From sequence record K02751.1: a DNA stretch of 336 nucleotides; one strand, given 5' to 3'. Positions 1 to 336 of this stretch are shown piece by piece (position 1 is the stretch's first letter; each line of letters starts with the position of its first letter). The translations under genes were made by a program, and so were the position numbers. The notes beneath the pieces were generated by a model that searched no databases, was not told where the DNA came from, and saw only the letters and a program-made list of their open reading frames with translations. Origin of the DNA: a phage.

Positions 1-83
1 TTAAGTTGATGCAGATCAATTAATACGATACCTGCGTCATAATTGGTGGTTTGATGGCCTCCACGCACGTTGTGATATGTAGA

Positions 84-98
84 TGATAATCATTATCA
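84..98. repeat. 15-bp palindrome TGATAAT-C-ATTATCA (7-bp arms, 1-nt centre)
   Basis: Seen directly: 84-90 TGATAAT is the reverse complement of 92-98 ATTATCA. GATGATAATCATTATC (82-97) resembles the Fur-box consensus GATAATGATAATCATTATC. Function not established. Confidence 0.6.
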
Positions 99-104
99 CT
101 TTAC

Positions 105-111
105 GGGTCCT
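105..111 (+). promoter_or_regulatory. cosQ-like element (GGGTCCT), packaging termination signal upstream of cosN
   Basis: GGGTCCT lies about 20-30 bp upstream of the cohesive-end start, where cosQ sits in lambda. The exact cosQ coordinates are from recall, not verified. Confidence 0.55.
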
Positions 112-130
112 TTCCGGTGATCCGACAGGT

Positions 131-142
131 GGGCGGCGACCT
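131..142. other. cosN core: 12-nt cohesive-end sequence GGGCGGCGACCT (terminase nicking site)
   Basis: Exact match to the lambda 5' single-stranded cohesive end. Flanked by CGCGGGTTTTCGCTATTTATG as at the lambda left end. The 4 bp immediately upstream differ from the lambda reference (see findings). Confidence 0.9.
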
Positions 143-178
143 CGCGGGTTTTCGCTATTTATGAAAATTTTCCGGTTT

Positions 179-194
179 AAGGCGTTTCCGTTCT
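179..194 (+). promoter_or_regulatory. cosB R3, gpNu1 (terminase small subunit) binding element
   Basis: AAGGCGTTTCCGTTCT contains the CGTTTCC core and matches R1 (281-296) at 12 of 16 positions, same orientation. The position about 50-65 bp from the cohesive end fits lambda R3. Confidence 0.65.
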
Positions 195-204
195 TCTTCG
201 TCAT

Positions 205-231
205 AACTTAATGTTTTTATTTAAAATACCC
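205..231. promoter_or_regulatory. AT-rich bendable segment at the position of the cosB IHF site I1
   Basis: AACTTAATGTTTTTATTTAAAATAC is AT-rich with T- and A-tracts and lies between R3 and R2, where IHF site I1 sits in lambda. I could not place an exact IHF consensus match by eye, so the boundaries are approximate. Confidence 0.45.
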
Positions 232-238
232 TCTGAAA

Positions 239-254
239 AGAAAGGAAACGACAG
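239..254 (-). promoter_or_regulatory. cosB R2, gpNu1 binding element (inverted relative to R1 and R3)
   Basis: AGAAAGGAAACGACAG is the exact reverse complement of 281-296. It contains GGAAACG, the reverse complement of the CGTTTCC core. Confidence 0.7.
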
Positions 255-280
255 GTGCTGAAAGCGAGGCTTTTTGGCCT

Positions 281-296
281 CTGTCGTTTCCTTTCT
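281..296 (+). promoter_or_regulatory. cosB R1, gpNu1 binding element
   Basis: CTGTCGTTTCCTTTCT contains the CGTTTCC core and forms a perfect 16-bp inverted repeat with 239-254. It lies about 25 bp upstream of the Nu1 start codon, as in lambda. Confidence 0.7.
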
Positions 297-320
297 CTGT
301 TTTTGTCCGTGGAATGAACA

Positions 321-336
321 ATGGAAGTCAACAAAA
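321..336 (+). CDS. Nu1: 5' end of the terminase small subunit gene (gpNu1); CDS continues beyond the window
   Basis: ATG GAA GTC AAC AAA A encodes M-E-V-N-K, the recalled N-terminus of lambda gpNu1 (MEVNKKQLADIFG…). It sits 190 nt after the cohesive-end start, matching the lambda Nu1 start at genome position 191. A weak GGA Shine-Dalgarno-like motif lies about 7 nt upstream (311-313). Confidence 0.85.

Follow-up and report, generated by a model that had tools for sequence, protein, structure and literature searches.

The 336 nucleotides of phage DNA analysed here (sequence record K02751.1; the whole stretch is called the window in what follows) raise the question of what a small gap in an otherwise familiar sequence represents. 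An earlier note had pointed to an apparent loss of about 10 bp upstream of cosQ, in DNA nearly identical to that of phage lambda, and had proposed that it could be neutral natural variation in a lambda relative or the mark of a lab-derived cos fragment. We have explored the identity of the window, the occurrence of the gap among lambdoid phages and prophages, its position relative to the signals of the packaging machinery and the ways in which it could have arisen.

Identity of the window and placement of its two deletions

The window is the closed cos region of laboratory phage lambda, of the reference type (J02459/NC_001416). It is reconstructed exactly from NC_001416/J02459 positions 48359-48502 followed by positions 1-206 once two blocks are removed, with 0 substitutions over the 336 positions. 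Compared with the closed cos of J02459/NC_001416, all 336 window bases are identical, including the base known as G138, and the window is without 48404-48413 (ATTATTTGAC, the decamer) and without 48499-48502 (TACG).

Read from left to right on the plus strand, window 1-45 matches NC_001416 exactly over lambda 48359-48403, non-coding DNA to the left of the 10-bp deletion, in which a repeat search returned an imperfect inverted repeat formed by CAATTAATACG (window 17-27) and CGTCATAATTG (window 35-45). The 10-bp deletion junction lies at window 45/46, and it is followed by an exact match to lambda 48414-48498 (window 46-130), which is the right end up to 4 nt before the terminus. This segment holds an intact cosQ, GGGTCCT, at window 105-111 (lambda 48473-48479); its position was transferred from the misc_feature of the phage 434 record OL657227, 24-30 nt from the right end, and its sequence is invariant across the alignments. 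At the second junction, window 130/131, the missing TACG represents the last four bases of the linear lambda genome, exactly at the join with position 1, and the 12-nt cohesive-end sequence GGGCGGCGACCT follows intact (window 131-142, lambda 1-12, an exact match to NC_001416). The cosB region (window 181-298) is identical to the reference; its R repeats, recovered as the repeat families D1, I1 and I2, are found at about window 183-195 (R3), 238-250 (R2, inverted) and 285-296 (R1), in keeping with the R3/I1/R2/R1 layout of cosB (PMC4669245). An extra G at window 268 (lambda 138) is the G138 state of J02459/NC_001416, and window 321-336 contains the first 16 nt of the coding sequence of Nu1, the small terminase subunit (nu1 is at 191-736 in NC_001416, and window 321 is lambda 191).

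Among phages, plasmids and complete E. coli genomes, the best megablast matches to the window are lambda and lambda prophages. All but one of the full-length matches span 349-350 nt against the 336-nt query, and none is gap-free. In a pairwise alignment with PV340536, a re-sequenced lambda, there are 0 substitutions and three indels: 10 nt missing from the window after position 45, 4 nt missing after position 130 and one additional G at position 268. Scored with gaps, the re-sequenced lambdas and lambda prophages (PV340536, DE3, KT232076 and the K-12 lambda lysogens) have 95.7% identity to the window, with no substitutions; unlike the window, they carry the decamer and TACG and are without G138.

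These comparisons bear out most of what had been noticed from the sequence alone. The lambda sequence given in the earlier note is correct, the absent block being exactly ATTATTTGAC (48404-48413), and pairwise alignment and exact reconstruction agree on its loss between window 45 and 46. Aligned to the lambda right end, the stretch is gapped and not contiguous, and the second indel suspected nearby is real, namely TACG (48499-48502). The gap does lie upstream of cosQ (junction at window 45/46, cosQ at window 105-111), the figure of about 85 bp to the cohesive end agrees with the 85 nt that separate the junction from the right-end/left-end join in the window, and the segment, described as having no assigned function, is outside the 48446-182 insert that comprises cosQ, cosN and cosB (PMC4856287).

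In an exhaustive search over every placement of a 10-nt and a 4-nt deletion in the 350-nt reference segment, one solution only was obtained, ATTATTTGAC and TACG. Microhomology at the 10-nt junction is 0 nt in both directions, which rules out replication slippage between direct repeats; slippage between the nearby TTGAT/TTGAT or TTG/TTG pairs would delete 19 bp or 8 bp, not 10. The dropping of a printed ten-letter block is not supported either, as the decamer is off the block register of J02459 (48401-48410), and equally off register when counted backward from the nick or in the numbering of the window. Under some other numbering, a dropped ten-letter block would be possible.

G138 was present in six of the 50,697 phage records: J02459, NC_001416, two O276 records, one UNVERIFIED lambda strain and OR974322. 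It was absent from ten other aligned cos regions (PV340536 and nine more), from 100 out of 100 distinct IMG/VR relatives and from every E. coli chromosome among the complete genomes, where the only match was an engineered plasmid; a full-text literature search for a '138delG' note returned nothing relevant. G138 looks like a base specific to the reference, probably an old sequencing error, that marks the sequences derived from it. It could in principle be real in some laboratory stock (O276 carries it), and this would weaken the idea of a copy made from the reference text. The non-lambda lambdoid cos regions in the alignment have several substitutions within the span of the window. Because G138 is present and there are 0 substitutions over 336 nt, we assign the window to laboratory or reference lambda and not to a wild relative. 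As a side observation, the E. coli 'RiboJ-M2-day21' plasmid NZ_CP174269.1 (segment 301-335) contains a 35-nt piece of lambda cosB four times in the G138 form, equivalent to window 243-277 on the R2-side hairpin, and one of the copies adjoins an rrf fragment; these pieces were apparently designed from the lambda reference.

The decamer and its surroundings in lambdoid genomes

In the collections that we searched, no lambdoid lineage carries the 10-bp gap as an inherited allele. The 24-mer across the junction had no match in IMG/VR, in GTDB (one genome per species) or in the JGI metagenomes. A junction-centred 50-mer, for which megablast seeding is possible only across the junction, gave no match when run against 5,426 complete E. 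coli genomes, 50,697 phage records and 72,556 plasmids (PLSDB); the window as a whole has 8,797 homologous places in the E. coli set. It had been suggested that the same sequence in many independent genomes would point to an ordinary variant; we found it in none.

The spacing itself was explored in IMG/VR with a gapped pattern in which two exact flanks are separated by 0-30 nt. Among the matches listed, the spacer is 10 nt in 120 of 120 contigs, and it reads ATTATTTGAC in 103 and ATTATTTCTC in 17; in these lambdoid contigs, among the matches listed, the sequence of the decamer is not strictly fixed and its length is. A spacer of 0-9 nt gave zero matches in IMG/VR, and the 23 matches to it in metagenomes and genomes were discarded, their flanks being unrelated to lambda and their number as expected by chance for a 20-mer. 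Since this first sample needed exact flanks, a second one was drawn via the neighbouring DUF3950 protein, a choice that is unbiased for the DNA of the decamer, and the decamer is intact with unchanged spacing in 76 of the 77 loci. The remaining locus (the one listed with a sequence starting AACTTATTGATAGTG) has wholly different DNA upstream of the gene instead of the lambda-type region to the left of cos. Finally, all 71 phage records with lambda 48299-48474 (71/71) match it with at least 80% query coverage and at least 90% identity, and the full-length matches, among those listed, are exactly as long as the query.

The decamer lies in none of the genes annotated in the reference and is overlapped only by a 37-codon minus-strand ORF of some automatic annotations. 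The nearest real gene is a 64-codon member of the DUF3950 / YlcI-YnfO family on the minus strand (Pfam E = 1.9e-20); it starts at 48303, and the decamer is therefore in its upstream region. The only conceivable local effect of the gap would be on the upstream region of this divergently oriented gene. Between the DUF3950 start and cosQ, lambda 48330-48425 (about 100 bp, non-coding) is near-invariant in 100 distinct relatives, and this stretch may serve the DUF3950 gene as its promoter/operator region. However, its conservation is not specific, because the adjacent coding sequence is about equally conserved. Two overlapping imperfect inverted repeats are found in the near-invariant stretch (lambda 48330-48425; window 1-67), namely ATCAATTAATACG/CGTCATAATTGAT and CGTCA..TGACG; the deletion clips one inverted repeat and takes the 3' arm of the other.

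Folded locally (41 nt), the CGTCA..TGACG repeat differs from shuffled sequences with z = -2.3 (RNA, plus strand) and z = -2.75 (minus strand), and it is abolished by the deletion, the fold of the window having z = +0.49. In a 91-nt context this hairpin signal is gone (z = -0.35), and a natural variant, GAC>CTC, disrupts the TGACG arm with no compensating change, in contigs whose left arm is fixed by the search pattern. A stable, conserved hairpin, modest in 41 nt, lost in 91 nt and broken by a natural variant, was thus rejected. A standard scan returned neither a sigma-70 promoter nor an intrinsic terminator at the decamer, whereas a relaxed promoter scan gave a weak minus-strand match, TGGAGG-16-AATAAT (8/12), with its second hexamer within the decamer, so that the deletion removes a weak -10-like AATAAT on the minus strand. 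The IHF consensus WATCAANNNNTTR was unmatched at or near the decamer, in a scan that was also unmatched at cosB, the home of the I1 IHF site. No function is assigned to the decamer stretch in the literature searched.

Consequences of the two deletions for cos

The decamer, 90-99 nt to the left of the top-strand nick in lambda, belongs to no defined cos subsite. The synthetic 48446-182 insert of the Feiss laboratory (238 bp) contains cosQ, cosN and cosB, and an XbaI site has been engineered at lambda 48442 (PMC4856287); the decamer is 33 bp to the left of this insert and 60 bp to the left of cosQ. Because all three defined cos subsites are to its right, the loss of the decamer is predicted to be harmless to packaging, and by itself it would be expected to have no effect on packaging initiation or termination. 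With about one helical turn removed, the rotational phase of the upstream DNA relative to cos would also stay roughly the same. The cos mutations of the Feiss laboratory (the cos2 deletion of cosN, substitutions in cosQ and I2, and the synthetic 48446-182 inserts of pOER) are likewise small changes in lambda cos, but deliberate ones, and some of these mutants were synthesised from the reference sequence (PMC4669245, PMC4856287). None of the mutations in PMC4669245 and PMC4856287 deletes 48404-48413, a position outside their cos inserts.

With TACG, cosN has lost the left flank of its top-strand nick site, including the conserved CG. The cosN of the window reads GACAGGT|GGGCGGCGACCT and does not have the CG that stands beside each nick in an intact cosN. 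According to the Feiss laboratory, the CG beside the nick is highly conserved and under selection (PMC4669245), and among the matches listed TTACGGG is present in 96 of 96 IMG/VR relatives with cosN in reach. The junction left by this loss was absent as a 50-mer from the E. coli genomes and as a 24-mer from IMG/VR. The other two subsites are in place: cosQ with its 7 bp, about 24-30 bp left of the nick and brought 4 bp nearer to the nick position by the loss of TACG, and cosB with R3, I1, inverted R2 and R1, as window 131-336 is lambda 1-206. From established cosN genetics, a phage dependent on the cos of the window should not propagate; because the loss of TACG at the terminus removes the conserved nick-side CG, the pair of lesions is not expected to be the cos of a propagating phage.

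Origin and meaning of the gap

Artefacts at the cos join or at the ends of lambda do get deposited, as is shown by two other records. The Stenotrophomonas 'plasmid' pACYCe.8N_2 (NZ_CP104294.1, 48,499 bp) is lambda DNA that has lost GGG at the cos join, and OR974322.1, a lambda 'complete genome' from chicken cloacal swabs with G138 present, has an artefactual right end, its last 14 nt being GGTGAAAAAAAAGG instead of GGTGATCCGACAGGTTACG. Like the window, both are lambda sequences slightly damaged in or close to the cos join or the ends; their lesions (the GGG loss and a poly-A tail, respectively) are nonetheless unlike those of the window, and neither has the 10-bp gap. Near-exact matches to the lambda cos window also occur in a group of 'plasmids' of about 48.5-49.3 kb (NZ_CP104294.1, NZ_CP068597.1, NZ_CP082339.1 and CP036489.1), for which the hosts given are Stenotrophomonas, Paenibacillus, Salmonella and Rahnella, and which presumably represent control or contaminant lambda DNA. 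In another record, the Bacillus thuringiensis plasmid pBMB0558 (HM037272.1; segment 201-544), there is a lambdoid E. coli cos/Nu1 region through which single-base indels are scattered, probably contamination of the assembly by the cloning host or library.

Based on our results, the gap is probably a private, non-natural lesion in a sequence of the J02459 type, introduced during sequence determination, assembly, transcription or design, and silent for packaging. By exclusion and association, we infer that an artefact or a design is its most likely origin. The window would be a copy of reference lambda across the closed cos with two private lesions, the loss of ATTATTTGAC and the terminal loss of TACG, and the gap would count as a real mutation only in the case of a record that describes a laboratory construct. 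An artefact is consistent with the reference-type G138, with the second lesion exactly at the physical terminus and with comparable damage in other lambda records. It is less easily reconciled with a clean loss of 10 nt located 85 nt inside the join, which is atypical of homopolymer or end-trimming errors, or with a decamer out of the ten-letter register of J02459 (48401-48410); and, given the near-invariance among relatives of the roughly 100 bp around it, a function of the decamer is possible. The proposal of a lab-derived cos fragment holds as far as laboratory derivation is concerned, and we widen it to an artefact of the record, of the assembly or of design.

A real deletion in a laboratory lambda derivative, a cos vector or a lambda transgene/carrier array, arising by end-joining-type repair and carried passively without need for cos packaging, is the main alternative, possible but rather unlikely. 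Both lesions are clean and without microhomology, and the full 12-nt left cohesive end is kept while 4 bp of right-end duplex are lost, as would be expected from fill-in, nibbling and blunt joining of linear lambda; reference-designed DNA does carry G138, as in the engineered E. coli plasmid. Yet the junction is in no vector-like or engineered record (PLSDB, the phage set, E. coli plasmids), the fosmid-type cos of an Alicyclobacillus 'plasmid' (PLSDB) has both the decamer and TACG intact, physical lambda DNA, when re-sequenced, is without G138, and the junction strings were not found in a full-text literature search. Two particular sources were rejected: a known vector cos fragment (the fosmid-type cos is intact at the decamer and the junction is in no plasmid) and the lambda transgene rearrangements of MutaMouse and gpt-delta rodents, whose published junctions are different and much larger.

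Two further readings are less likely still. A neutral polymorphism of a wild lambda relative, the first possibility raised in the earlier note, could draw on the position of the gap in non-coding DNA outside the defined cos subsites and on a decamer that tolerates change (ATTATTTCTC in 17 of 120 IMG/VR contigs, among the matches listed); but over 336 nt the window has 0 substitutions, where non-lambda lambdoid cos regions differ at several positions, it has the reference-type G138, a shortened spacer is in no collection searched, and the accompanying cosN lesion is predicted to be incompatible with a propagating phage, and we consider this origin extremely improbable. It is highly unlikely, too, that the deletion was selected or engineered for its effect on an unannotated conserved element, be it a DUF3950 promoter/operator or an accessory element upstream of cosQ. 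The near-invariance of 48330-48425 in 100 distinct relatives, the two overlapping inverted repeats, with local fold z-scores of -2.3 and -2.75 and the second repeat abolished, and the weak TGGAGG-16-AATAAT hexamer inside the decamer, upstream of DUF3950, would speak for such an element. They are offset by an empty standard promoter scan and a relaxed match of only 8/12, by a hairpin that is lost in the longer context (z = -0.35) and whose TGACG arm is broken by GAC>CTC without compensation, by an equal conservation of the neighbouring coding sequence and by a literature, as searched, that assigns no function. For the more specific proposal that the decamer belongs to an unrecognised DUF3950 operator/promoter, or to an accessory signal that the packaging motor meets before cosQ, and that the window comes from a mutant without one helical turn, we see a very slim chance.

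In conclusion, we do not regard the 10-bp gap as a biologically interesting feature. If it were real and viable, 48404-48413 would be dispensable, which is already expected from functional cos inserts that begin at 48446. In practice, this analysis is of use for quality control, as it marks the window as a copy of reference lambda that has been damaged or engineered. Its cosN should be uncleavable, and the window is not to be counted as evidence for the diversity of lambda-like phages.
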